Below, in pieces: positions 421 to 13,251 of a stretch of DNA of 13,754 bases. The stretch lies in the IMG/VR virus record IMGVR_UViG_2534682222_000011; one strand, written 5' to 3'. Both the position numbers and the translations under genes were made by a program. This stretch comes from a virus (lineage: Duplodnaviria > Heunggongvirae > Uroviricota > Caudoviricetes). Under the pieces are notes generated by a model. It saw only the letters and a list, made by a program, of their open reading frames with translations. It was not told the origin of the DNA and made no database searches. Every line of letters begins with the position of its first letter. The stretch's first letter is position 1.

Positions 421-878
421 TGACTTGGATCACCCAAACAGATAACTGGACAGGGATCGCGGCGTGGGCGGGTTTTGCTTTGTCCGTATTTCAATTACTA
501 AAATCCAGAACATCGCTAAGGCTTTATCTCGGATGTGATCAGCACGAGGACAGGATATACGTTTCGAACATAAGCGCACACGATGTAACGTTGAGTGCAG
601 CCGGTGTGGTAACAGCCAGTGGACGCCTTAGAATGTTATCCGACGAATATTCGGACGAGAACATGATCACACCGATGCTGCCAAAAAGATTGAAAGCACG
701 AGACGAAATGGTCTTGAACGTGCCATTCATAAATAAGGCTCATCACAACAAAGTGCATCATCGTGGCGGGGTTTATATCAAAACATCTGACGGCAAGATG
801 TTCAGTGATGTTTGTTGGATCAAACGCCAATGGTGGTGGTTACTGTCTGTAATACTACGAGACACAAAGCGATACTAA
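420..878 (+). CDS. hypothetical membrane-anchored protein (152 aa)
   Basis: N-terminal hydrophobic stretch WTGIAAWAGFALSVFQLL fits a single TM helix or signal anchor. ATG at 420 preferred over the TTG at 417 used by the ORF track. Confidence 0.45.
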   Translation: MTWITQTDNWTGIAAWAGFALSVFQLLKSRTSLRLYLGCDQHEDRIYVSNISAHDVTLSAAGVVTASGRLRMLSDEYSDENMITPMLPKRLKARDEMVLNVPFINKAHHNKVHHRGGVYIKTSDGKMFSDVCWIKRQWWWLLSVILRDTKRY

Positions 879-968
879 GTTGATTGATAGTCCGAGGTGA
901 TGTTCTGCCCAGCGTAGTTGCTGGGTGATACACCTTCAATGATTCTTGTTAGTGTGTAGGGGGGGGGC

Positions 969-1187
969 ATGTTGGATTTTAAAGCTGAGTTTGTTGGCGG
1001 CAGCCATAGCGGCGAGGTTATATCACCGATGTCCGAGGTAGAACTTAATAAACTAGGGTATAGAGTCCATTTACGTGGTGCCCCCTCTGGCGATGAAATG
1101 CCTGTACACGTTGTTGTACCTATTGAATGGTCAGCGGATGAAGCACACAGAGCCATAATGCAGCGCTGGGGTAAACGCAGACGGTAG
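969..1187 (+). CDS. hypothetical protein (72 aa)
   Basis: ORF with balanced charged composition, directly preceded by a G9 homopolymer (959-967). The competing antisense ORF 875-1198 is S/T/P-rich low-complexity and judged less likely. Confidence 0.3.
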   Translation: MLDFKAEFVGGSHSGEVISPMSEVELNKLGYRVHLRGAPSGDEMPVHVVVPIEWSADEAHRAIMQRWGKRRR

Positions 1188-1904
1188 ATGTCGCGCATTT
1201 CTCTTAAACTGGCTGCTGTGTTTGGTGCTAATTATCCATGCAAAGTGGCCTAAGCTACGTGGAAGAATGATCAGTTTCGCATTATTTGGTTCAAGGAGGG
1301 CTCCCCCACAGCCTCACTCTCTGAATGCAAAACAGCCCCACAATCCCACTGTTAAAAGTCCCAGCTTGAAAATTGCACGCTTATGGTTGCCCCTCCCTCA
1401 ACTCTATAGCTCGCCCGCGCCCCCGTGTGCATGTGCGTGCCCGCGCGTCAGGGGTCGCTGAGAAACCCTAAGATTTTGCTCATCCGAGACAAGCATTACA
1501 GGAGCGTGCTACTGAGCGAGATGCTGGCTGATTGCTGTTGCTGAATAACCGTGTGGGACGAGTGCTGCGATCATCTGCCTTTCACTGTGTATCTGTACAT
1601 CCCTCTAAAACGATCTGTATCGCTCTGTGCTGCGTTCTGTGCTTCCAATGTGTGATTCAATGCCTTTGTGATTTCGAGATCGTGGCGGTGCCGTGCTGAT
1701 CTGCTGCGTGCGCTCTACGCTGTGTTCGCTGGATGTGCCGGGGAATGCTGCTGTGGGGCGGTGCCAGTCTCTTTCGGGTATACCTGATAAAGACATAGAC
1801 ACACTGTCTCATTTGACTATCTATAAAACTCTATTGACTACACATTATTGATGTGATCTCTTATAGGTCTTGCTGTGATATTTCATTGAGACTTAGGGGG
1901 AAGC

Positions 1905-2537
1905 ATGGCACACAATGCGCTTATCTATTGCCGCGCCAGTACATCAGAGCAACACGCAGACCGGGCGCTGGGCTTGCTGCGAGAGTTCGCCAGTGATCGG
2001 GGCTGGCCTGTACGGGCGGAGTACATCGAGAACGCCAGCGGTGCGAGGCTGGCGCGTCCTGAACTAATGCGCTTGCTGGATGATGCGCAGGCCGGAGAGG
2101 TCTTGCTTGTCGAGAGCATCGACAGGCTAAGCCGCCTTACGCAAAAGGAATGGGCGACACTGAAACAGAGGATTCAGGATAAGGGACTGGTGATCGTTGC
2201 CGTTGACCTGCCAACCTCATGGCAACTACTGAACGATACGGCGTCAGAGCTTACAGAGGGCATCCTGAGAGCTGTTAACGCAATGCTGATTGATATCCTC
2301 GCTACGATGGCACGAGTGGACTACGAGACACGCAGAGCACGCCAAGCGCAGGGCATCAAGCGTGCCAAAGCCGAGGGGAAATATAACGGGAAGTCTAAGG
2401 ATGAGAGCGCCCGTGAAACTGTCCGCGCTATGCTTACCGTTGGGAATAAACCAGAGCACATCATGAAAGCTGCCGGGATAAGCCGGGCAACGTTCTACCG
2501 TATCAAACGTGAGCTGTCCGCCAGCGTTACAGAGTGA
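1905..2537 (+). CDS. serine recombinase, resolvase/invertase family (210 aa)
   Basis: N-terminal catalytic motif LIYCRASTSEQ (Y-x-R-x-S-T-x-x-Q, presumed nucleophile Ser), SG...R...GEVLLVESIDRLSR core, and C-terminal helix-turn-helix (ISRATFYRIKRE), as in small serine recombinases. Purine-rich SD-like GGGGGAAG precedes the ATG. Confidence 0.9.
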   Translation: MAHNALIYCRASTSEQHADRALGLLREFASDRGWPVRAEYIENASGARLARPELMRLLDDAQAGEVLLVESIDRLSRLTQKEWATLKQRIQDKGLVIVAVDLPTSWQLLNDTASELTEGILRAVNAMLIDILATMARVDYETRRARQAQGIKRAKAEGKYNGKSKDESARETVRAMLTVGNKPEHIMKAAGISRATFYRIKRELSASVTE

Positions 2538-2953
2538 TGACCTACAGTCTGATGAGATGCCAGCACTGGCCGTTACTGGGCTGTGGGTGATGGATGGCCT
2601 ACAGCTTTTGTATTGATATCAGATATTTATGTTATGCCTAATCTCGTAATGGTATGATTTATAATGTATTTCCGTATTACTTGCGGCTCTTGATATGAAG
2701 AGATGGCGGGGCTTTAGCCGTGCCAGACGATGAGTATCAAGATCAGATTGTGAATGTGATTTATCACTGAACAATTCGAGGGATGGGGCAGGGGAAGGGA
2801 TCAAAGGCTGTGTTGTCCAATCACTCAGCTAGATTTGAAGCAGGGCAACACCTTCGTTTTACCTTTAAAGTTGCATTTAAAATACATGTACAGAAAAGGG
2901 TTCTTCCCTTTCATCCCTTCTCCTAATCAGTGTTATCGCTTTTCGCTCTACAC

Positions 2954-3023
2954 TGGCTGCGCTTCTCGCTATGCTCCAGCCCGCTCCATCGCCTTTGGCT
3001 CATTCCCGGCCTTCGCCCGCTGT
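2954..3023 (+). repeat. scrambled tRNA-Gly 3'-half-like fragments (possible decayed att scar / left junction)
   Basis: Contains GCTCTACA, CCCGCTCCA, ATTCCC and a 12-nt exact match CCTTCGCCCGCT to the tRNA-derived att at 13224-13251, same orientation but out of order. Confidence 0.3.
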
Positions 3024-3080
3024 GATGCTCGGCCCTCCACGCAACCGTGCTTGCCAGGCAGTCAACGCGGCGGGGATAGA

Positions 3081-3113
3081 GTAGTGGTACGGTACTATAT
3101 TGGGATATGGTAC
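3081..3113 (+). repeat. GGTAC direct repeats (candidate integrase arm-type sites)
   Basis: GGTAC at 3086-3090, 3091-3095 and 3109-3113. The reverse-complement motif ([C/G]TACC) is clustered at 13152-13182 next to the integrase start. Confidence 0.25.
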
Positions 3114-3288
3114 TCACAATGCCGCTTATAACCCCTTACATCCCAGCATCCCAACAAACCTACTGAAAGTTATCAGCAAATCATTCATCAAGTCAGACAG
3201 GGCAAGGCTTACAAAGGTGTTGATTAAAAAATAATCAAATTAGAGTTTCTACTGTGGCAAAACGAACACCACTCGCTTGTGCATACGT

Positions 3289-3354
3289 AGTGACCTACAT
3301 GAAAGTCACTACTAAAGAGGGACAGAACATTCAACGTCACTGCTGACATGAAAT
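3289..3354 (+). promoter_or_regulatory. operator-like repeats upstream of helicase gene
   Basis: Dyad AGTGAC-N10-GTCACT (3289-3310) and direct repeat ACATGAAA (3297-3304 and 3347-3354), in the non-coding leader 75-140 bp upstream of the 3428 start. Confidence 0.3.
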
Positions 3355-3427
3355 TCTCTCTACGGGCAGCTCGGCGCTGCCGTCCTGCGCCTCGTTCTAA
3401 ACTCACCTTAATTTTGGAGATTTCACC

Positions 3428-5272
3428 ATGCCAACGAACCTACGCCGTTTGCTTGCGCAGGCTGCCGACGCTGACCCGCTCAATACCGCAAACGCAGATG
3501 TACAGCAAATGGTCGCTGACGGGATTGTTATTCGGCGTTCCAAGATATGCCCGATAAAGCATAAACCCGTTAAGGCGGCATACAACACGAAGACCGAAGA
3601 GTTTTATTACAATGCTGATGGCTCCGCTATGACCCTGCGGGAATGGCGAGCGCTGCATGGTGTTCAACCGAAGAAGCAAAAACAGCGCTCTGACACGGGG
3701 TTGCGGCAAGTCATCCAGCCCGGTGACGCAATTCATTGCCGACGCGCTGAGATAGAAATGTGGCTCAACAAGAAGCCTGCTCGGTATGCTGACCCGCTGC
3801 CGCCTGATTTTCCCGGTGTTCGCGTAGATGATGCCGCATTGAAACCGCGCGAGCACGCCGTTTCGGCATCGACAACCGGGCAGAATGCTTTTCTCAAAGC
3901 CTGCCGCGAGTTCCTGATTTGTGATGAGAAGACTATACACCGCATCAACAGGGGCATGAATAAACTGGAAGCGATGCGCAATTCAGATTTCAAACGCTAC
4001 GGGGACTCAGCGGAGTTTCGTCAATTGTGGTGTGGAGAGTCGAAACCTACCGAGGATAAATTTAACAGTACAAATCATCATTGTGACCCAAACGGCTTGG
4101 CAGTGTCGCCGTCTGTGCCGTCACTGAATACAGCCTCTTATGAGTTTCGCCCGCTGGTTCGCTGTGACCGAAACGCACGCGTTAGCCTGTTGCCACCCGA
4201 TGGGCTGGAGTGGAGGCCGGGGCAGTTGTCTGTTGCTGATGCGATCTTCTCCCGTGGTAGTGATGTGCTGGCCGTTCTGCCTACGGGTTATGGCAAGACC
4301 GCCGCCTTCGCTTATCCATTGATTTATGAGTCCCGCGCTGGCGTTGGCCTGTCTGTAATCGTGGTTCCCACTAATACCCTAAAGCGCCAGATTCTCCGCC
4401 AGTTGCGGGATGCTGGCGTTCACGCTGTGGCATTCGGTGACAAGTTGCCGAGGCACCGCAACGCTCAACAACTCGCGGGGCTGGCTGCCGGGGCGTTCCG
4501 TGTTGCTGTCGTTTCACCTGAGCATCTTGTTCTGTCGAGTCAGGTCTTCGCGGCGCTGATGGCTTACGGCGTTGATCGTTTTATCATCGACGAAGCGCAC
4601 ACGGTTAAAGACTGGGATTTCCGACCCGCTTACGAGGCCATGCAGCACTCGCTACAACATGCCTTTCTTTCGGCTCAACGCTGCGTATTTACGGCTACGC
4701 TGCTACGCGAAAATGAGCGCAGTTTAATGGCGTCGCTTGGCTGCCGTGGTGATTACGTAACATTCCGTGCTGATGTTGCTCGCGAAAATATCCAGTTGAC
4801 GACAGTCAGACAGTGCCGCGAACGTTTCCGAGCGGCTATTGGTCTGGTCGAGGCTCTGCCGAAAGAAGAGAAGACGCTCATTCTCGTCAATGACCTTAAG
4901 ACGTTGCGGGCGTACCTGAAACTCTTAGGCGACCGGGCGCGCCCATATCACTCGAAGACGATGCACTTGAGTAACGAAGAACGCCACGCAAACGCTGAGT
5001 GGTTTGCCACTACGCCGGGCGCAATTCTGATTGCTACTAAAGCCTTCGGGCTGGGGGCTGATGTGCCAGACATTCGCAACGTCATCGTTACATATATTCC
5101 TGATGACCTGCCTGACCTCATTCAGATGATTGGACGAGCCGGGCGCGATGGTCAACCTGCCCGCGCGTTTCTGCTGTGGTCATCGCTGGCGCTGGATGCT
5201 GCGCCTGATGAGCTTGCTTACTTCTACCGCCCTGAAAACTGCAACTGGCAGTACATCGCTAAATACCTCTGA
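3428..5272 (+). CDS. SF2 DEAH-box helicase, RecQ-like core, with ~270-aa N-terminal extension (614 aa)
   Basis: Helicase motifs in order: LPTGYGKT (I/Walker A), VVPTNTL (Ia), IIDEAH (II), FTATL (III), LIATKAFGLGADV (V), QMIGRAGRDGQ (VI, RecQ-type). N-terminal part has an excisionase/AlpA-like winged-helix signature (TLREWRALHGV ... GDAIHCRRAEIEMWL). GGAG RBS 10 nt upstream of the ATG. Confidence 0.9.
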   Translation: MPTNLRRLLAQAADADPLNTANADVQQMVADGIVIRRSKICPIKHKPVKAAYNTKTEEFYYNADGSAMTLREWRALHGVQPKKQKQRSDTGLRQVIQPGDAIHCRRAEIEMWLNKKPARYADPLPPDFPGVRVDDAALKPREHAVSASTTGQNAFLKACREFLICDEKTIHRINRGMNKLEAMRNSDFKRYGDSAEFRQLWCGESKPTEDKFNSTNHHCDPNGLAVSPSVPSLNTASYEFRPLVRCDRNARVSLLPPDGLEWRPGQLSVADAIFSRGSDVLAVLPTGYGKTAAFAYPLIYESRAGVGLSVIVVPTNTLKRQILRQLRDAGVHAVAFGDKLPRHRNAQQLAGLAAGAFRVAVVSPEHLVLSSQVFAALMAYGVDRFIIDEAHTVKDWDFRPAYEAMQHSLQHAFLSAQRCVFTATLLRENERSLMASLGCRGDYVTFRADVARENIQLTTVRQCRERFRAAIGLVEALPKEEKTLILVNDLKTLRAYLKLLGDRARPYHSKTMHLSNEERHANAEWFATTPGAILIATKAFGLGADVPDIRNVIVTYIPDDLPDLIQMIGRAGRDGQPARAFLLWSSLALDAAPDELAYFYRPENCNWQYIAKYL

Positions 5273-5310
5273 GTCGAAAGGCTCCCCCTCATTCTCTGGA
5301 GTTAATCCAT

Positions 5311-5748
5311 ATGCCTGTTACCGAACATGCGCAGCGTCGTGCTACGCGTGCGGATGCGCTCGTCACCGCACAACTTGCCTTCGCCCTGAACGGATATTCC
5401 TTCGATGGGTTAGCTGAGCGCCACCGCCAGACTCTTAATCGTGCGGCCATCTTGCGCCAAGCTGGTACGCCGCTACAGCGGTATTGCCTGCTCAATCACT
5501 GTGAGCCTTGGGAATGTCTGGCCGCTGTGCTGAATAGATTCCGACGCCGGGAGGATGGCGCTCGTCTTTGGCCGACCTATCGCATGGCTCGTGAGGTCTT
5601 TAATGGGACTGTTCACCCTGCCAACAAGACGCGCGACGAGATATTTCAATCTGTGCAGCGTCGCCTCTTTTTACCAAAACCAGTACACGCCGAAGTAATC
5701 CAGTACCTGCGCGTAATGGGGCTGACAGGAGTTAATCCGCATGACTAA
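5311..5748 (+). CDS. hypothetical protein (145 aa)
   Basis: ORF with GGAG RBS about 10 nt upstream; first in a chain of overlapping, translationally coupled ORFs. Confidence 0.6.
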   Translation: MPVTEHAQRRATRADALVTAQLAFALNGYSFDGLAERHRQTLNRAAILRQAGTPLQRYCLLNHCEPWECLAAVLNRFRRREDGARLWPTYRMAREVFNGTVHPANKTRDEIFQSVQRRLFLPKPVHAEVIQYLRVMGLTGVNPHD

Positions 5749-5947
5749 AACCGAGTTTGAAAATGAAACGTGGCGAATGAAAGGCTTGCTTCTTGGGGCG
5801 CTAATCCGCCGCCTTGAGGAAGACAAGGCTGGTGAGTCGCGCATGGCCGCAGCGGAGTTATCCAGTGCGGTCAACTTCCTTAAGGCCAATGCCGTAGAAG
5901 CGCCGGACACGTCATTTAACCGTGTATTTGAGGATGACGAGCAATGA
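5741..5947 (+). CDS. hypothetical protein (68 aa)
   Basis: Start overlaps the end of the upstream ORF by 8 nt; GGAG RBS with the same spacing as the upstream gene; acidic C-terminus. Confidence 0.5.
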   Translation: MTKTEFENETWRMKGLLLGALIRRLEEDKAGESRMAAAELSSAVNFLKANAVEAPDTSFNRVFEDDEQ

Positions 5948-6120
5948 CACCCGCAGAGTTTAGAGCATGGTTTGCAACCCTGCCGCCGAACTATCAGAGC
6001 GCAGCACGAGCCATGTATGAAAGCGCCCGCAAGACGGGAACACACACCGCTTCCAGCCTGCTACTCATTCGCACGCTGATTGAAGATCAAATCAATTTCG
6101 ATGGAGACTTTACCTTATGA
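5944..6120 (+). CDS. hypothetical protein (58 aa), not in supplied ORF track
   Basis: Hand-translated: ATG at 5944 overlaps the upstream TGA (ATGA); uninterrupted to TGA at 6118-6120, which overlaps the next ATG at 6117 (ATGA). Fits the coupled-operon pattern. Confidence 0.4.
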   Translation: MTPAEFRAWFATLPPNYQSAARAMYESARKTGTHTASSLLLIRTLIEDQINFDGDFTL

Positions 6121-6680
6121 CAGTTCTGAGCCTGACCGATATCCAGCGCATCAATACCCTCGTTAAGCGCGACCTTCGCAATGTGGAAGAGGTAGTCGCT
6201 GCAACCGGATTTGACCCGGAGGACGTTGACGCGGTGCTGCGCGGCGTTTATGTAGCCGACCTTGCCAACCAGTGGAGGGATGAAGCCGCTATTACGCTGG
6301 AGGAATACAACGCCATCCGTAAGCGCTGGAAACCGGGGCGCGGCCACTGGGACACTGCACATGCCATTGCACGCGATTTTCTAATTCGGCCTGAAACTGT
6401 GCTGGCTATCGTCCATTCCCGCTTTAGCAACGCCCACACCCACCCGATGCCGAAAGCAGTTAAAGCAAAGCCTGAGAAACCGCAGACGATGCGCCGCCTG
6501 TTGAGCGCCGACCTCGATCAGATGCACAAGCTGGAGCGCTTCGGCTGGAAACAAACCGAGATCGCTGGGGAGCTTGGGATCTCTGCTGAGGCTGTTGCTC
6601 ATGTCCTGCGCCTGATGCGTAGCAAGTGGTCTTATCCAGATATTTTGGAAGACGTTAACACGCGATTCGGGGCTAAGTGA
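6117..6680 (+). CDS. hypothetical DNA-binding protein with C-terminal HTH (187 aa)
   Basis: C-terminal segment WKQTEIAGELGISAEAVAHVLRLM resembles a helix-turn-helix; start overlaps upstream stop. Confidence 0.65.
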   Translation: MTVLSLTDIQRINTLVKRDLRNVEEVVAATGFDPEDVDAVLRGVYVADLANQWRDEAAITLEEYNAIRKRWKPGRGHWDTAHAIARDFLIRPETVLAIVHSRFSNAHTHPMPKAVKAKPEKPQTMRRLLSADLDQMHKLERFGWKQTEIAGELGISAEAVAHVLRLMRSKWSYPDILEDVNTRFGAK

Positions 6681-6913
6681 TGGCAGAGAACGAACCGCTG
6701 CACCCTGCCGTTAACCCTGATCTCTATGTGAACCTTGACGAACAGCGCGAGGGATACGCCCCGTTTGAATCACGCGGCTGGGATGTGCTGACACAGAACC
6801 TGTCCGGGGAAGGGCGAACTGATCCCGGCCAAGCACCAAACCAGAATCCAAGGCAGCGACCGCGTGGCTCCGTTGGCGAGCGACGTTGGTTGCGTCGTCA
6901 TGGCCTTATCTAA
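6680..6913 (+). CDS. hypothetical protein (77 aa)
   Basis: ATG at 6680 overlaps the upstream TGA (TGATG); the ORF track's GTG at 6677 is less likely. Basic, Pro/Arg-rich C-terminus. Confidence 0.45.
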   Translation: MAENEPLHPAVNPDLYVNLDEQREGYAPFESRGWDVLTQNLSGEGRTDPGQAPNQNPRQRPRGSVGERRWLRRHGLI

Positions 6914-6927
6914 CTGAGGATTATTTC

Positions 6928-7167
6928 ATGAGCACCATTATTTTAATGGAGCCACGCCGCGCGGCTGATTGCGGGCAACAACTGAAATTCATTGCCGAAG
7001 CCTTGAATCTTCGTCAAATCGATTTGGCTCATGTGTACCAGATCGACAGACAAGATCTCGGCAAAGCGTACCACGGACAGAAGATGATTCCTGCCCGATG
7101 CGTACACGCGCACATGCTTTTACTTGAACTGGCACATCGCCGAGTTACATCACAAGAGGTTGCATAA
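6928..7167 (+). CDS. hypothetical protein (79 aa), possible small HTH regulator
   Basis: ATG at 6928 with GAGGA RBS 7 nt upstream, preferred over the TTG at 6886. Segment LNLRQIDLAHVYQIDRQDLGK is HTH-like. Confidence 0.45.
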   Translation: MSTIILMEPRRAADCGQQLKFIAEALNLRQIDLAHVYQIDRQDLGKAYHGQKMIPARCVHAHMLLLELAHRRVTSQEVA

Positions 7168-7169
7168 TC

Positions 7170-7856
7170 ATGGCTGACCAGAATGTTAATCCGTACCTTT
7201 CGGGCGCTGATACTGCGCCGCAGCAATCGCCGTACATGGCCGCACCTGTAGGCGCTGACAACGGCGCTAGCAGATTCGACCAGACAACACCTGATGCTGA
7301 TTTCCTGAAAACGCAGCCAGCGAACATTAATCAAAGCTGGAACGAAAGTAACTTTGCCAACCAGCAAGACCAGCAGATTGATGTTGCTGCGCAAGTGGGC
7401 GACACGCTGCAATTACAGGATGGCACTACTGTTGAGTTGACTCCTGAACTTCATGGGCTGATGGGGCAGTTTCACCAGTCTGTCGAAAGCCAGCTAGGGC
7501 AGGGGACAGTTGACGCGATGTTGCAGTACGCTGGCACGCTCGACGCCGGGACGCAATCAACCCTTGAACGGATGGTTATGTCTGGCGACCCTGCGCAGAT
7601 GCAGCGGGCGGTTCATTATCTGCAAGAGCGTATGGTCGCAGGCACTGCGACTGGTTATGTCCCATCACAGGGGAACCCATACGGCCAGCCTGCCTCGCAA
7701 CCTGTTGGTATGTCTCATGCTGAGTTTATTGCAGCGTATGATCAGCTTTCGCAGTGGGCGCAGCAATCAGGGTATGGCCCCGGCCATCGCCAGTACGACG
7801 ATCAATACCGCGCTCTGGTTGCGCAGCGCTCCGCTGGCAAACGCGCTGGCCGTTAA
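7170..7856 (+). CDS. hypothetical Gln/Ala-rich acidic protein (228 aa)
   Basis: AAGAGG RBS 10 nt upstream of ATG. Q-rich, acidic, low-complexity composition of the kind seen in scaffold or decoration-type proteins, but no diagnostic motif. Confidence 0.65.
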   Translation: MADQNVNPYLSGADTAPQQSPYMAAPVGADNGASRFDQTTPDADFLKTQPANINQSWNESNFANQQDQQIDVAAQVGDTLQLQDGTTVELTPELHGLMGQFHQSVESQLGQGTVDAMLQYAGTLDAGTQSTLERMVMSGDPAQMQRAVHYLQERMVAGTATGYVPSQGNPYGQPASQPVGMSHAEFIAAYDQLSQWAQQSGYGPGHRQYDDQYRALVAQRSAGKRAGR

Positions 7857-7916
7857 GCAATCGCCTGTCCTGTCTTCCCCACGTCTTAACCTTACGTTTT
7901 AGAGCCTGAATCGCGT

Positions 7917-7936
7917 TGTACATCGCCAGATGTACA
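7917..7936. promoter_or_regulatory. TGTACA-N8-TGTACA palindromic repeat pair (candidate activator/operator site)
   Basis: TGTACATCGCCAGATGTACA lies in the 160-bp intergenic gap between the 228-aa and 115-aa genes. Confidence 0.3.
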
Positions 7937-8015
7937 TTCGTATACCTGCACCTGTAAAACGCGAAATTACCTCTCAAACACCACACATAAACCCACTTTG
8001 CATTGAGATCTGACA

Positions 8016-8363
8016 ATGACCTTACTGACACCTGAAAACGTGGCAGCGGCTAGGGCTGCCCGTAGCGCGAGGATTGAACACTGGAAAGCCAACGCCAGCC
8101 AGCTTAAGCAGGACTTTGCTGACGAAGCGCACTGGCGGCGGCTCGCCTCACGCTTCGGCGTGCGTATGCCCTCGGCGTATGTTCCCGGCTCCGAGCTGCG
8201 ATTGCTGCGCCGGGCGGCCAAACGCGCGGGCATCTCTGGTGCTGATATGCGCGATGCTTTTGGTGGGGGCGTTGCGCACCTGCACGAGCTTAATCCCCAT
8301 TGGCCTGCCTTCGCGCTTATCGGCCTGATTCTTGAGATCGCGGCTGAAAAAGCTGCTGCCTGA
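8016..8363 (+). CDS. hypothetical protein (115 aa)
   Basis: ORF after an intergenic gap; Ala/Arg-rich; weak RBS. No recognisable motif. Confidence 0.55.
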   Translation: MTLLTPENVAAARAARSARIEHWKANASQLKQDFADEAHWRRLASRFGVRMPSAYVPGSELRLLRRAAKRAGISGADMRDAFGGGVAHLHELNPHWPAFALIGLILEIAAEKAAA

Positions 8364-8431
8364 TTCATCCCATTCTCTTTTCCCCTTTTCCATAAATCGC
8401 GCTGGCTAACGCTGGCGCGGGAGCTATTTCT

Positions 8432-9427
8432 ATGACTGACAATGTTTATACCCCTGACCAATTCCGCCCGCACTGGGGCGGTGTAGATGCTGACAACGAC
8501 ATTCACATTGAAGCGTATGACCGGGACGTTCAGACCCGCCTTGAGGCAAAGAGCGTGTTTCTCGCCGAGGGGCTGAGCACATACAAGCCGCTGAAAAACA
8601 GTAATCAGTATCGTGTAGACCGCCTGAGCGGAGATCTGGAGGTGAAGGGCAGAACCGCAGGGCAATCGCTGGAGCCTACCGCCGTTAAGTCGGACAAGCT
8701 GATTATCTCTGTGGATACGCTGAGCTATATCCGCATCCCGATTGACTATCAAGACGACTGGACAGCGCCCACCTTTCGCGCAGAGCTGAGCCGCAACATG
8801 GGGACAGCCCATGCAAAGTTCTACGACGAAGCGCACACTATCCAGCTAATCAAAGCGACTGACTTTGTACCGCCGCCTACGTTGCAACCAACGTTTAACC
8901 CGCTGACGGATAATGTTGTCTCGCTCGACCTGACAACGGGGAGCGAAGAGGATGCGGCTAACGAACTGGTTCACGCTATTAAAGCTGCTGTTAATCGATT
9001 CCTAACTGAAAAAGATATTCCGGTGGCGGAGCTGTGCCTTCTCATCGACCCAGCTTGGTTCAGCATCCTGATGGAACATAAGAAGTTGATGAACGTCCGT
9101 TACAGCCGGGATAGTGGCAATGATTACGCATGGCGTCGCGTTGGCTATGTCGCTGGGGTGCGAGTTATTGAGCTGAACAGTTACCCGCAGGAAGCCATTA
9201 CCGCGCATGAACTGGGCGCTGATTATGATGTGACCGCAGGGGAAGCGCTGACACGGGCGACGCTGTTCCGGCCTGCGTCTGTACTTGTGACAGTCGAAGC
9301 GCAGAGCGTTATCAATCGCCAGTGGGATGATGAACGCGAAATGACAATGGTGATGGACTCATATCGCCTGTTCAATGTTGGGCTGCGCCGCCCTGACTGC
9401 GTTATAAATTTCCGACAAGCTGCATAA
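8432..9427 (+). CDS. hypothetical protein (331 aa), possibly structural/morphogenetic
   Basis: GGGAG RBS 8 nt upstream of ATG. Largest protein of the late-region-like block; no catalytic motif seen; role inferred from context only. Confidence 0.7.
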   Translation: MTDNVYTPDQFRPHWGGVDADNDIHIEAYDRDVQTRLEAKSVFLAEGLSTYKPLKNSNQYRVDRLSGDLEVKGRTAGQSLEPTAVKSDKLIISVDTLSYIRIPIDYQDDWTAPTFRAELSRNMGTAHAKFYDEAHTIQLIKATDFVPPPTLQPTFNPLTDNVVSLDLTTGSEEDAANELVHAIKAAVNRFLTEKDIPVAELCLLIDPAWFSILMEHKKLMNVRYSRDSGNDYAWRRVGYVAGVRVIELNSYPQEAITAHELGADYDVTAGEALTRATLFRPASVLVTVEAQSVINRQWDDEREMTMVMDSYRLFNVGLRRPDCVINFRQAA

Positions 9428-9989: not shown

Positions 9990-10415
9990 ATGGCTGATGA
10001 AAAGCCGATTAGAGCGCTGGCAGATGATGACCCGCGCCGCCAGCGGTACGCTGAACTGTTGGCGCAGGCTGGCCGCATGACTATTCCACGGCTGCATCCG
10101 GGCGATGCTAACAGTGTTATGAGTCAGCTTGCGACAATGCTCGGAGCACCTGTCCCGATAGTAGGTGCTATGACTGAGCACGCCGCTGCATGGCGTGCCT
10201 GTCTTCTGGAGCAAGGGCTTGGTGATCTTCTGGATGGCTTGAGTAAGCAGGTGCTGACCATCTTCTTTCTGCTCTGCTGGAGAGACAGCGCCTTGCGATT
10301 GGCGGGTAAGCAAAAGGAACGGTTTGCAGCGGCCAGCGAGGGTTTGACCATTGAGCAATACCGGGCAATGCACCCGGCTTACAGAGAGGATAAAGAAAAT
10401 GATAACCACGATTAA
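9990..10415 (+). CDS. hypothetical protein (141 aa); position suggests a small-terminase-like or packaging-redirection protein
   Basis: Strong GGAGG RBS 8 nt upstream. Functional guess rests only on its place directly downstream of the HNH endonuclease. Confidence 0.6.
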   Translation: MADEKPIRALADDDPRRQRYAELLAQAGRMTIPRLHPGDANSVMSQLATMLGAPVPIVGAMTEHAAAWRACLLEQGLGDLLDGLSKQVLTIFFLLCWRDSALRLAGKQKERFAAASEGLTIEQYRAMHPAYREDKENDNHD

Positions 10416-10698
10416 ATTAAGGTGGCGGTACATCGAGCCGCCACCAATGACTGGCGCACTCGCTGACCTGAAACAGTGGGTAATGGATACCGGAGAGCCT
10501 GAGCTTGAAGCTAAATTTCGTAAGCTGCTGGGGCTGATGCGCCGCAATGGTATCAGTGACGAACGTGTTAATGCGATGGCCGCCGAGCTTTATGCTCTGG
10601 TATGCCAACGCCAGCGCGAAGAATACGAAGCCTGCAAACGGGCTGCATCTGACAGTGGAGGCTTTGAATCATGGTTACACGGACAGACCAACTACTAA
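10399..10698 (+). CDS. hypothetical protein (99 aa)
   Basis: ATG at 10399 preceded by GAGAGGA RBS and overlapping the upstream stop region; preferred over the in-frame ATG at 10351, which lies 65 nt inside the upstream gene. Confidence 0.55.
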   Translation: MITTIKLRWRYIEPPPMTGALADLKQWVMDTGEPELEAKFRKLLGLMRRNGISDERVNAMAAELYALVCQRQREEYEACKRAASDSGGFESWLHGQTNY

Positions 10699-11108
10699 GA
10701 AAAGCGATGCGAGGCTATCTGGAATATCTCGGCAACATGCCGCTAGCGGAACGCATTAAAAATTCTGCTGCGTTCGATGATGTGTATCACTTCCTGTTGA
10801 ATGGTTCAGGACGGCTGGAGTTGCGCCGCGCTGATGTGGCCGCTGTCCGTGTCTTCCTGTGGAATTATCAATACCGACGCTGCGCGGTGACAGCTAAGCC
10901 GCTACGCCTCGCGTCTGCTGTATTGGATCACTGTCACCGAACTGGACGTGTGCGCGCTGTGGTTCATCGTTCGGCCAATGCAGCGGAAGGTGGTTATTAT
11001 GTGGGAAATTTGTGCGGACTCTCACGAAGTAGCATGTTAAGCATGCTACCTGCCTACCGCCGACAATACAAGGGGTTGGGCGTTATTTATCCAAGACAAC
11101 ATGCGTGA
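10671..11108 (+). CDS. hypothetical protein (145 aa)
   Basis: GGAGG RBS 9 nt upstream of ATG; overlaps upstream ORF by 28 nt. Confidence 0.55.
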   Translation: MVTRTDQLLRKAMRGYLEYLGNMPLAERIKNSAAFDDVYHFLLNGSGRLELRRADVAAVRVFLWNYQYRRCAVTAKPLRLASAVLDHCHRTGRVRAVVHRSANAAEGGYYVGNLCGLSRSSMLSMLPAYRRQYKGLGVIYPRQHA

Positions 11109-11893: not shown

Positions 11894-11916
11894 AAAGGCG
11901 CTATAGCGCCTTTTTT
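11894..11916. terminator. rho-independent terminator, plausibly bidirectional
   Basis: Hairpin AAAGGCGC-TATA-GCGCCTTT followed by a T6 run on the plus strand; the complement reads hairpin plus TTTCTTTT. Abuts the integrase stop codon. Confidence 0.7.
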
Positions 11917-13135
11917 ATAAACACGGATAACTGACCAACTCCACATACTCCCATAGTTCTTTCATCCCTGCTCCCTTGCTATATGTCCTGAAAGCTTCCG
12001 TTTTAGCTTTTTGTTCGGTATGCCCGGTTATTGCCCCTATGCGCTGTTCTGGTACTCCTGCTCTGTCTAAGCAAGTAATAAAGTGACCACGCAGGGAGTG
12101 GAAGCATTGGCGATCTGTAGCCGCTGACAGCACGCGACGGCGTAGCCGTGTAAATGCCTGCGAGTACCACGGGCCACGCTTACCGTCGGCACGTTTAATC
12201 TTGTTCGATTGGGGGAGCAGGTATTCACCGTTGTTCTGCGCAAGGTATTTATCAACGATGCTGATTAACAGCGAGTGTATGGGGACGTGCCTTACACCCG
12301 CTTTAGTTTTAGATTTGCTGACGTAGAAGCAGCGTACCCCTTCAACTTTGATAATCTCAACTCGTTTGATGCTGGCGATTTCGTCGAGACGCATACCGGA
12401 ATACAAACCGATTATGATTACGTCTCGTATCTCGCTACCTGCCTCTTTTATTAATGCCTGTAGCTGGTGTAGTTCAAAAGGTTGATAACTTTCGTTCGTC
12501 TGGCGGGCTTCCAGATTGTGGCCGTGAAAGGGATTATCAGGGGCGATATTGTCATATTTACGCCGGGCGAAGTCATACAGCGTCCCTAAGCAGGTTAACC
12601 AGTTTTGCAGCGTCTGGCGGGAAAACTTATCTTGGTTCGCTTCCAGAAAGTCAGAGACGAGCCGCCGCCCGATTCCATTTATTGTAATGGTTGGGCGTTT
12701 TATTGAATTAGTAAATGCCGATACAGCGCGAACTGATTTACTCAGCGTGGAATAAGAGCGCCGATCTTTGTATTGCTCTGCATATTCTTTACTGACATCT
12801 GTCAATTTTGGTGATGCTGGTTTTCCCCGCTCTGCTGGAATAGTTGCGGGTGTGGTAATGCTGCTGGATACCCCCGCCAGCAAGTGAAGATCTGTTACAG
12901 CGGAATGAATCCGGGTAATGGGGTTATCCGGTTTCATCATGAGCTGTAGCTTACGGAACTCTAATAAATATTGGTCACGGAAAATGCGAGCTTGCATGAT
13001 GTCCCGTGTGCCTGTCGATTTCTTGAGCGAGCGCCGCCCGTTCCAGAGGTGGCGCATGTAGACCGGAATATAGATTTGAAAGATGAATATCCCATCTTTG
13101 TTTGCATAAAGATAAGAAGTCTTCTTGATTGGCAT
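11915..13135 (-). CDS. int: tyrosine site-specific integrase (406 aa)
   Basis: C-terminal catalytic region with HSLRGHF (box II-like) and a downstream Tyr (RTYSKG). ATG at 13135 with AAGG RBS preferred over the TTG at 13165 used by the ORF track. Adjacent to the tRNA-derived att. Confidence 0.9.
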   Translation of the reverse strand: MPIKKTSYLYANKDGIFIFQIYIPVYMRHLWNGRRSLKKSTGTRDIMQARIFRDQYLLEFRKLQLMMKPDNPITRIHSAVTDLHLLAGVSSSITTPATIPAERGKPASPKLTDVSKEYAEQYKDRRSYSTLSKSVRAVSAFTNSIKRPTITINGIGRRLVSDFLEANQDKFSRQTLQNWLTCLGTLYDFARRKYDNIAPDNPFHGHNLEARQTNESYQPFELHQLQALIKEAGSEIRDVIIIGLYSGMRLDEIASIKRVEIIKVEGVRCFYVSKSKTKAGVRHVPIHSLLISIVDKYLAQNNGEYLLPQSNKIKRADGKRGPWYSQAFTRLRRRVLSAATDRQCFHSLRGHFITCLDRAGVPEQRIGAITGHTEQKAKTEAFRTYSKGAGMKELWEYVELVSYPCL

Positions 13136-13151
13136 GGTAATTACCTTGTAA

Positions 13152-13182
13152 TCTACCGCTACCAACTACCGGGATAAGTACC
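13152..13182 (-). repeat. clustered (C/G)TACC(G/A) repeats between int start and att (candidate arm-type sites)
   Basis: CTACCG, CTACCA, CTACCG and GTACCG within 31 bp; mirror the GGTAC repeats at 3086-3113. Confidence 0.3.
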
Positions 13183-13223: not shown

Positions 13224-13251
13224 GAGGGTTCGATTCCCTTCGCCCGCTCCA
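13224..13251 (+). repeat. att site: 3' terminal 28 nt of a tRNA-Gly gene (T-arm, acceptor 3' strand, CCA)
   Basis: GAGGGTTCGATTCCCTTCGCCCGCTCCA has a T-stem/loop (GAGGG-TTCGATT-CCCTT), 7-nt acceptor strand CGCCCGC, discriminator T and CCA. It matches the 3' end of E. coli glyU as I recall it. No 5' half is present upstream. Confidence 0.7.

Follow-up and report, generated by a model that had tools for sequence, protein, structure and literature searches.

The virus record IMGVR_UViG_2534682222_000011, analysed over its full 13,754 nucleotides (nt) as the window, is a ~13-kb island integrated at a tRNA-Gly gene. Positions 1360 to about 1760, a gene-free tract upstream of a small serine recombinase gene, are likely the island's version of the concatemer junction of a helper phage, serving as the signal for packaging and end formation of a satellite. 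From sequence comparison, the island is best regarded as a probable satellite, with a virulent phage of the Bonnellvirus type as its packaging helper. It combines an integrase and attachment (att) sites with a sequence related by homology to the packaging junction of that presumed helper. The features that carry this reading are the following.

1360-1397, + strand: junction block (block A), CCCAGCTTGAAAATTGCACGCTTATGGTTGCCCCTCCC, homologous to what lies directly left of the direct terminal repeat (DTR) in the phages
1398-1760, + strand: terminal-repeat-like tract, with the predicted packaged left end at 1398 (TCAAC...) and the right end at about 1745-1765, possibly ~1510
1500-1765, + strand: A-poor stretch rich in TGCTG and CTGTG, with 1620-1780 as its most extreme part
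1905-2537, + strand: small serine recombinase of type A, 210 amino acids (aa), intact, Pfam PF00239 Resolvase 6.8e-25

Junction block and terminal repeat of Bonnellvirus phages

A blastn search of 1200-1904 against 50,697 phage records at sensitive settings matched eight records only, all from the Bonnellvirus group, and those with a taxonomy line are T7-like Autographiviridae. The matched part is confined to window 1360-1437 (77-80% identity, E 2e-8), and in the phages its place is always the gap that separates the endolysin gene, the last of the late genes, from the SAMase gene, the first of the early ones. A 259-bp DTR is annotated in the type species J8-65 (1-259 = 40723-40981), and it opens TCGACCCGAAGG... 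directly after ...CCCGGCTTGAAAATTGACTATTTGTGCGTGGGCCTCCC. The start of this repeat directly follows ...GGGCCTCCC, and the island reads ...GCCCCTCCC|TCAAC at 1390-1402. The ...CCTCCC boundary of the phage corresponds to window 1398, where the island reads CCCAGCTTGAAAATTGCACGCTTATGGTTGCCCCTCCC|TCAACTC... with a matching T at 1398. The predicted left boundary of the repeat is at 1398 by alignment to the J8-65 annotation, and homology to the first ~40 nt of the phage repeat runs on to 1437. Block A itself is a candidate terminase recognition or cleavage signal.

In an alignment of the junction block (A1) from seven islands and five phages, 31 columns are invariant, and the island relatives are 80-96% identical to the phages in this block. 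The subtypes of the junction parallel the phage subtypes: the window and L002 (loci and phage records are cited by such numbers) resemble altidsur and megetsur, and L009 resembles J8-65, Lidtsur and forsur. The closest pair, L002 and altidsur, shares 95.6% over 45 nt. The island junction has the same orientation as the phage junction, and the genes that follow are on the same strand.

More of the phage end is found in L002 and L003, where a further 180-230 bp downstream of the recombinase are 86-92% identical to the phage post-repeat region (altidsur 10556-10778).

L002 9468-9694 and L003 about 8108-8286: post-repeat fragment between the recombinase and the helicase, counterpart of phage L022 10556-10778

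The location of this fragment beyond the recombinase suggests that the recombinase module is embedded in a mimic of the left phage end. In the window, this second phage-end fragment has been lost. The fragment contains ATCACTATAGACACTTTCAT, a motif that recurs inverted just after the phage RNA polymerase gene (L022 31228). Motifs of the CACTATAG type are present in the phage and in L002 and L003, and are missing from the window.

The class II pause signal of T7, ATCTGTT, is located at the T7 concatemer junction (10.1101/2021.01.11.426313). In the Bonnellvirus phages, TATCTGTCTCTTTT occurs 10-27 nt to the right of the repeat and resembles the T7 signal, as does the phage motif GGGTATCTGTCTCTTTT, also right of the repeat (L022 about 10462-10490). 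In L002-type islands (GTATCTGTCTCGTTTGGGTATACC) there is a partial overlap between GGGTATCTGTCTCTTTT and the left arm of the recombinase site. As a separate observation, it shares TATCTGTCTC with the left arm of that site just upstream of GGGTATACC in L002, L004, L007 and L028. In the window the pause-like motif has been removed by a 20-bp deletion.

Composition of the tract

The gap of ~717 bp between the stop of the open reading frame (ORF) 969-1187 and the ATG at 1905 contains short mechanical ORFs only (79, 55, 65, 51, and 52 aa), in agreement with the ~700-bp non-coding tract described in an earlier note on this DNA. The A-depleted, CTG/GTG-rich stretch that the same note placed at 1620-1780 is equally real. 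Its A fraction is 0.093, and the lowest-A 160-nt segment of all 13,754 bases starts at 1620, with a value of 0.0875 against a mean of 0.24 and a standard deviation of 0.05. The commonest 5-mers in 1500-1765 are TGCTG, GTGCT, CTGTG, and GCTGC. An A-poor composition is present upstream of the recombinase in all ten genomic relatives, even where the sequences cannot be aligned.

The left end of the phages is built in the same way. A makes up only 2-12% of the DTR and of the ~270 bp that follow it, the words are the same, and the genome minimum of altidsur, an A fraction of 0.025 at 10340, is within the terminal-repeat region. Beyond this A-poor region come an AT-rich segment and three strong sigma-70 early promoters. 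The 4-mer cosine between window 1500-1765 and altidsur 10251-10560 is 0.735 on the same strand, compared with 0.415 +/- 0.074 (maximum 0.676) for other phage windows, 0.077 for the opposite strand, and 0.483 +/- 0.063 (maximum 0.668) for mononucleotide shuffles. The island segments closest to the phage tract in 4-mers are exactly 1426-1576. Moreover, a weak collinear patch pairs window 1682-1722 with altidsur 10395-10435, near the end of the phage repeat. The matching composition, words, and collinear patch together point to the A-poor, CTG/GTG-rich stretch as the island counterpart of the helper's terminal-repeat region.

Deposited Bonnellvirus genomes carry annotated hypothetical proteins in their A-poor repeat region (L031 1435-1842, L032 881-1396, L033 1005-1553, and L034 845-1592). 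Such calls are probably spurious because of the many indels among the phages in this region, and a tract of this kind would explain them at phage genome ends. Searches for phage promoters among repeated 10-12-mers found none, and a 17-mer from the A-poor interior, scanned in IMG/VR for a donor phage, gave chance matches only. One candidate motif for a phage-polymerase promoter, TCCCACTGTTAAAAG (1344-1358), was rejected, having zero copies in phage altidsur.

A conserved slot with exchangeable recombinases

The junction block was found in 45 loci, namely the window, 10 genomes, and 34 metagenome contigs. Wherever the sequence extends far enough, the block is nearly always followed by a small serine recombinase gene that begins 313-547 nt downstream. 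The type A recombinases, to which that of the window belongs, show 80-100% identity. Type B recombinases have 25% identity to type A and their own repeated GGTGTCATCAAT and TGCTACC motifs, and type B' recombinases are 47% identical to type B. Judged by these identities, the slot holds at least three lineages, which is a non-orthologous replacement. That unrelated enzymes replace one another while the slot stays the same speaks for a functional link between small serine recombinases and the terminal-repeat mimic. The swap point between the types is ~20 nt upstream of the palindrome at 1767-1794 described below. Type B is found in L035, L036, L038, L040, L048, L073, and L081, and type B' in L059, L106, L133, and L135.

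The serine recombinase and its site

The recombinase of the window, recognised as such in the earlier note, has the organisation of a small serine recombinase: an N-terminal catalytic domain (PF00239 over residues 5-160), a C-terminal helix-turn-helix (HTH), and a length of 210 aa within the usual range of about 180-210. The HTH assignment (HTH_7, PF02796, at 171-203) is borderline, with E 6.3e-5 and 23.5 bits against a cut-off of 23.8. The motifs YCRASTSEQ, with Ser12, and DRLSR are present. The best PHROG match is PHROG 125, 'DNA invertase' (3e-40), and the best relatives of solved structure are Sin resolvase 2r0q (1.8e-12) and gamma-delta resolvase (3.6e-8). The region between the A-poor stretch and the gene contains the following elements.

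1767-1794: recombinase site I, an imperfect 28-bp palindrome GTCTCTTTCGGGTA|TACCTGATAAAGAC centred on GGTATACC, candidate crossover site
1806-1842: further half-sites GTCTCATTTGACTA ... AACTCTATTGAC (1806-1819 and about 1826-1842), overlapping the -35, candidate accessory site and auto-repression operator
1834-1904, + strand: recombinase promoter region and ribosome-binding site, with a -35 TTGACT at 1834-1839, no canonical -10, and AGGGGGAA at 1895-1902

The site comprises one clear palindrome (1767-1794) and one or two half-site pairs (1806-1842), and a third clustered half-site is seen. In relatives the half-site pair is a clean inverted repeat, CAATAGGGTT-N6-AACCCTATTGAC, overlapping TTGACA. 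Recombinases of 64-69% identity in unrelated chromosomal or defence-island contexts have the same upstream arrangement in a cleaner form, CAATAGGGTT-N6-AACCCTATTGACA followed by a good extended -10, and these relatives outside satellites have a TTGACA-N16-TATCAT promoter. A sigma-70 consensus scan of the window found no site at 1834-1904. Site I is kept upstream of type A recombinases in satellite and non-satellite contexts alike. On this pattern, 1767-1842 is the recombinase's own res-like site and not part of the A-poor stretch, and the recombinase probably represses its own promoter. The neighbourhoods of the 64-69% identical recombinases (L011-L019) are defence-like or chromosomal and uninformative on function.

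The island and its presumed helper lineage

A copy of the island in E. coli NZ_LR536431 is 100% identical except for a 549-bp deletion, and window 831-8531 is matched at 100% identity in GCA_900450495.1. A ~13-kb island adjoining a tRNA gene is also seen in other relatives, and some island relatives are located at tRNA-Leu. The gene order is variable cargo, gene-free gap, recombinase, second gene-free gap, DEAD/DEAH helicase, small ORFs, a 331-aa protein, an HNH nuclease, an endonuclease VII-like protein, and, on the opposite strand, a tyrosine integrase. All island genes but the integrase read rightward from the predicted left end, and the recombinase is the first of them. The features that delimit the island and relate it to a helper are as follows.

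8432-9427, + strand: major capsid protein homologue of Autographiviridae type, 331 aa, PHROG 267 2.8e-67
11915-13165, - strand: tyrosine integrase, Pfam Phage_integrase 5.9e-10
13224-13251, + strand: attR, the right island border, an exact 28-nt repeat of the tRNA-Gly 3' end in L001, with a T-arm match in the Rfam search

The earlier note had placed the recombinase outside the main element, possibly in an older island remnant. This does not hold, because the gene is between the tRNA-Gly attachment site and attR; it is, moreover, near-universal in the island family. No transposase was found in the window, and the neighbours of the recombinase are island genes.

The island capsid protein is 57% identical to the altidsur capsid protein (tblastn, 1.85e-121). 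Its best phage matches are Bonnellvirus (57.7%), followed by phiKMV-like podophages at no more than 42%, and all 759 phage records among the matches listed look Autographiviridae-type. By this similarity the capsid gene identifies Bonnellvirus as the likely helper lineage, as a pointer independent of the junction. PHROG and Pfam scans of the island ORFs detected, apart from the capsid, only a weak scaffold match, the HNH and endonuclease VII proteins, the helicase, and the integrase. Searches of the island for an alpha primase-helicase, sid/psu/delta, and a P2-type cos gave no matches.

Proposed mechanism

On helper infection the island would excise and replicate, and the helper terminase would cut its DNA at the junction mimic. 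The product would be packaged as a linear, repeat-ended DNA of ~13 kb, about 1/3 of the 42-kb helper genome, in small capsids made with the island's own capsid protein. In T7 the left genome end enters the cell first. By analogy, the left end of the satellite would enter first, with the recombinase as the first gene behind it. The recombinase would then turn the incoming repeat-ended or multimeric DNA into a monomeric circle for the tyrosine integrase. Making such a circle is the most economical role for the recombinase, since linear DNA of the T7 type cannot integrate without circularisation.

Two routes to the circle can be envisaged. The recombinase could cyclise the DNA by recombination between the site copies in the two terminal repeats, provided that the repeat reaches 1794, or it could resolve multimers. 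Each route is possible and, taken singly, rather unlikely. Each island has one copy of the site, and two copies would occur only in multimers or in repeat-ended DNA.

Taken as a whole, the proposal is of an undescribed satellite family of Enterobacteria that lives on Bonnellvirus podophages, with packaging by a junction mimic, a capsid protein of its own, and a recombinase that circularises or monomerises repeat-ended DNA for integration. This is put forward tentatively, with slightly less than an even chance of being correct in all its parts. The circularising or monomerising step would be without parallel among known satellites, and it would account for the presence of unrelated recombinases in one slot.

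Weighing of the explanations

Several observations weigh against a packaging and end-forming junction. The strongly A-poor stretch is largely absent in 13 of the 45 loci, which have a shorter tract; it is variable, is partly missing in L010 and in L035-type loci, and may be dispensable filler. The interior resembles known phages only weakly (41 nt at 75%, E 0.006-0.49), and no right-boundary motif is common to all tract types. Scans of IMG/VR and metagenomes for packaged linear forms returned contigs that are chromosomal or fragmentary and without terminal repeats. Terminase, portal, protease, head-tail connector, and tail genes were not detected in the PHROG and Pfam scans of the ORFs, which did not cover small ORFs exhaustively; that the island depends wholly on a helper is thus an assumption. 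Decayed deletion derivatives of the island are common. As to the recombinase, the window has a single copy of its site and phage altidsur has none. Wild-type enzymes of the resolvase type (Tn3/gamma-delta) normally need supercoiled substrates, which argues against the cyclisation of linear DNA. The losses of the A-poor stretch can be accommodated: since some relatives lack most of it, its composition is probably inherited from the phage repeat rather than required in itself.

The same variability could be read as decay. The tract would then be a functionless fossil of recombination with a T7-like phage, now drifting, and the recombinase a neighbouring cargo or maintenance gene. Such a history would fit an interior that is highly variable in sequence and in length (184-416 nt between the conserved flanks across relatives), the loss of the A-poor part in the loci mentioned above, and the many island copies that are deletion derivatives. 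It is nevertheless unlikely, given the junction block, which is conserved at 80-96% in 45 loci from several genera and whose subtypes co-vary with the phage subtypes. Position and orientation are likewise fixed relative to the recombinase and the helicase, and the second phage-end fragment is kept at 86-92% in L002 and L003, whereas the capsid gene DNA reaches only 69%. A role as replication origin of the island, served by the RecQ/DpdF-like helicase or by helper machinery, with the strand-asymmetric composition assisting unwinding or priming, is less probable still. T7-like phages have secondary origins near their genome ends, a helicase is encoded 1.5 kb downstream, and the strand asymmetry is strong. 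The tract, however, has no iterons, just weak three-copy 20-mers at 75-80% identity; it is G+C-rich without an AT-rich unwinding element, and it is variable and partly dispensable. The better-conserved non-coding region at 2538-3096 is a stronger candidate for an origin.

The earlier note had suggested that the A-poor stretch might hold a res or inversion site, a structured RNA, or a decayed gene, and these suggestions fared differently. The res-like site exists, and the search of the tract and the recombinase flanks for inverted repeats revealed the palindrome at 1767-1794 and the half-sites to ~1842. These lie at or beyond the 3' edge of the A-poor stretch, and they are single-copy, with no inversion site. 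The stretch as a recombinase target for inversion or deletion, either a hix/gix-like switch or a pair of res sites, is very improbable, even though a palindromic site with further half-sites lies just upstream of the gene and the best PHROG match of the enzyme is a DNA invertase. No second recombinase site was found at up to 3 mismatches in the 13.7-kb window, the other match (4375) being at chance level, and neither an inverted nor a direct partner flanks any segment. A single-copy site defines no invertible or deletable segment, and since neither the window nor the helper phage has another copy, inversion and recombination with the helper genome are both disfavoured. Among the relatives there are no inverted variants. 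In L001 a deletion that removed the C-terminus of the recombinase and the conserved block downstream used a 5-nt microhomology (GCAAC) rather than the site, so it is not site-specific.

The structured RNA and the decayed protein gene have both been set aside, and together they are as improbable as the switch. The long gene-free gap would suit either, and type-2 relatives have a minus-strand UUCG-loop hairpin in which L002 and L008 differ by compensatory changes. An Rfam covariance-model search of the whole window at E <= 1, however, found nothing in the tract, and the RNA folding of 1280-1800 was no better than that of shuffles on both strands (z +0.68 and -0.09). When folded as DNA, the first 67 nt of the repeat-like tract gave a significant GC hairpin only in altidsur and forsur (z about -2) among the islands and phages compared, and in the window these 67 nt fold no better than shuffles. 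Indels among close relatives in the tract are large and mostly not multiples of three (1, 2, 8, 12, 14, 19, 20, 22, and 99 nt), and no ORF in the tract is conserved among relatives. Instead of a gene remnant, the tract appears to be the counterpart of the Bonnellvirus terminal-repeat region.

Comparison with known systems

P4 and cos/pac phage-inducible chromosomal islands (PICIs): Like P4, whose cos is copied from its helper P2, and like the cos and pac PICIs, the present element is an integrative island of about 1/3 of the helper genome size, with a cis packaging sequence homologous to the helper and capsid-related functions; its reliance on a helper is inferred. In contrast to these satellites, its presumed helper is a virulent T7-like podophage, and its signal would be a DTR junction and not a cos or headful pac site. 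The island also has its own major capsid gene, and no Sid/Psu/Delta or AlpA/Pri-Rep genes were found in it.

Capsid-forming PICIs (cf-PICIs): The cf-PICIs of Enterobacteria are similar in being chromosomal islands that encode an HK97-fold major capsid protein, a scaffold-like protein, and an HNH nuclease. However, they have genes for terminase subunits, portal, protease, and head-tail connectors, and tails are all that they borrow from the helper, whereas none of these genes was detected in the present island, whose capsid protein is of the Autographiviridae type.

Phage-inducible chromosomal island-like element (PLE): The PLE of Vibrio cholerae, a parasite of the lytic phage ICP1, resembles the island in carrying a serine recombinase and in having a strictly virulent helper, as appears to be the case here. 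PLE is excised and integrated by a large serine integrase. On the contrary, the island has a tyrosine integrase at a tRNA gene, and its serine enzyme is a 210-aa resolvase-type protein beside the putative packaging signal.

T7 concatemer junction: As with the T7 junction and plasmids carrying it, a single flanked repeat copy would suffice for the cutting and packaging of a circular or concatemeric replicon. Chung and Hinkle reportedly described in 1990 that T7 packages plasmids carrying its concatemer junction. The island differs in being a natural chromosomal element rather than an engineered plasmid, and it has no sequence similarity to T7.

Resolvases and invertases: Tn3, gamma-delta, and Sin resolvases and their res sites share with the island enzyme the N-terminal catalytic domain, the C-terminal HTH, and inverted half-sites upstream that overlap the gene's own promoter. 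Unlike these systems, the island recombinase has no transposase or plasmid backbone, its similarity is distant (E 1e-12 to 1e-8), and it has one site per element, embedded in a phage-end mimic. DNA invertase switches (Hin, Gin, Cin, and Pin) require two inverted crossover sites, and the island is without a second site.

P1 Cre-loxP: The likeness to P1 is a functional analogy only, in that an early site-specific recombinase would circularise an injected linear, repeat-ended genome. Cre is a tyrosine recombinase, whereas enzymes of the resolvase type usually need supercoiling.

To our knowledge, the known satellites of Gram-negative bacteria (P4-like, PICI, and cf-PICI) exploit temperate cos or headful phages, and PLE exploits lytic ICP1. 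A full-text literature search, of incomplete coverage so that a prior description is possible, found no description of a satellite of Autographiviridae or Bonnellvirus. If the proposal is correct, satellite biology would extend to the Autographiviridae through an island that is widespread in E. coli and Enterobacter. Phage therapy makes heavy use of the Autographiviridae, and islands like this one could either block these phages or be spread by them. The island would also offer a natural system for how T7-type terminases recognise concatemer junctions. Moreover, the link between recombinase and repeat, which is independent of recombinase lineage, points to an undescribed step by which repeat-ended DNA is established as a circle.

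Distribution and other features of the island

Among 5,426 complete E. coli genomes, including E2348/69, the recombinase was present in 147, the start of the tract in 109, and the capsid DNA in 59. In the assembly collection, 1,114 blocks contain a record of the exact capsid protein. A search of the plasmid collection gave a mislabelled chromosome as its sole match.

Deletion derivatives of the island occur in several genomes, with 2492-3040 gone in L001, 4273-7170 in L156 and L159, and 3801-8279 in L161. Deletion variants near the recombinase were considered as site-specific events and rejected, as they arise by microhomology or fall inside other genes. In the short IMG/VR contigs L025 and L026, the integrase, endonuclease VII, a piece of 8004-8078, and the junction block are joined in a rearranged order, and these contigs may be miniaturised or scrambled relatives.

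The segment from the tRNA site to the junction block (1-1187 in the window and its equivalents in L002-L010) is wholly different between islands and contains DUF3800, ORFs of unknown function, and insertion sequence elements. It looks like a hotspot for cargo or defence genes. The window ORFs 193-420, 417-878, and 969-1187 had no Pfam or PADLOC matches.

The island helicase (3428-5272) matches the PADLOC model PDLC02858 'DpdF' at 2.7e-268 over the full model length, and its matches to NCBIfam DpdF and RecQ are weak. The PADLOC model may have been built from a satellite helicase of this island kind, in which case such islands could be mis-annotated as Dpd defence. Upstream of the helicase, at window 3287-3330, there is a palindrome, GTAGTGACCTACA/TGAAAGTCACTAC, followed by TCACTACTAAAGAGGGACA. 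The latter loosely resembles the core of phage polymerase promoters of the T3/T7 type, and no match to it turned up in phage altidsur.

The second gene-free gap, behind the recombinase, contains a further conserved feature.

2538-3096, no strand assigned: conserved non-coding block, 85-95% identical across islands and as conserved as genes

This block includes a second A-poor, C/T-rich tract at 2900-3060 (A fraction 0.106) and an 18-nt inverted repeat (2790-2807/2907-2924), and its RNA fold has a z of -2.35 on the + strand. It is possibly an origin or a regulatory RNA. In L004 and L028, a unit of ~90 nt within the block is duplicated in tandem.

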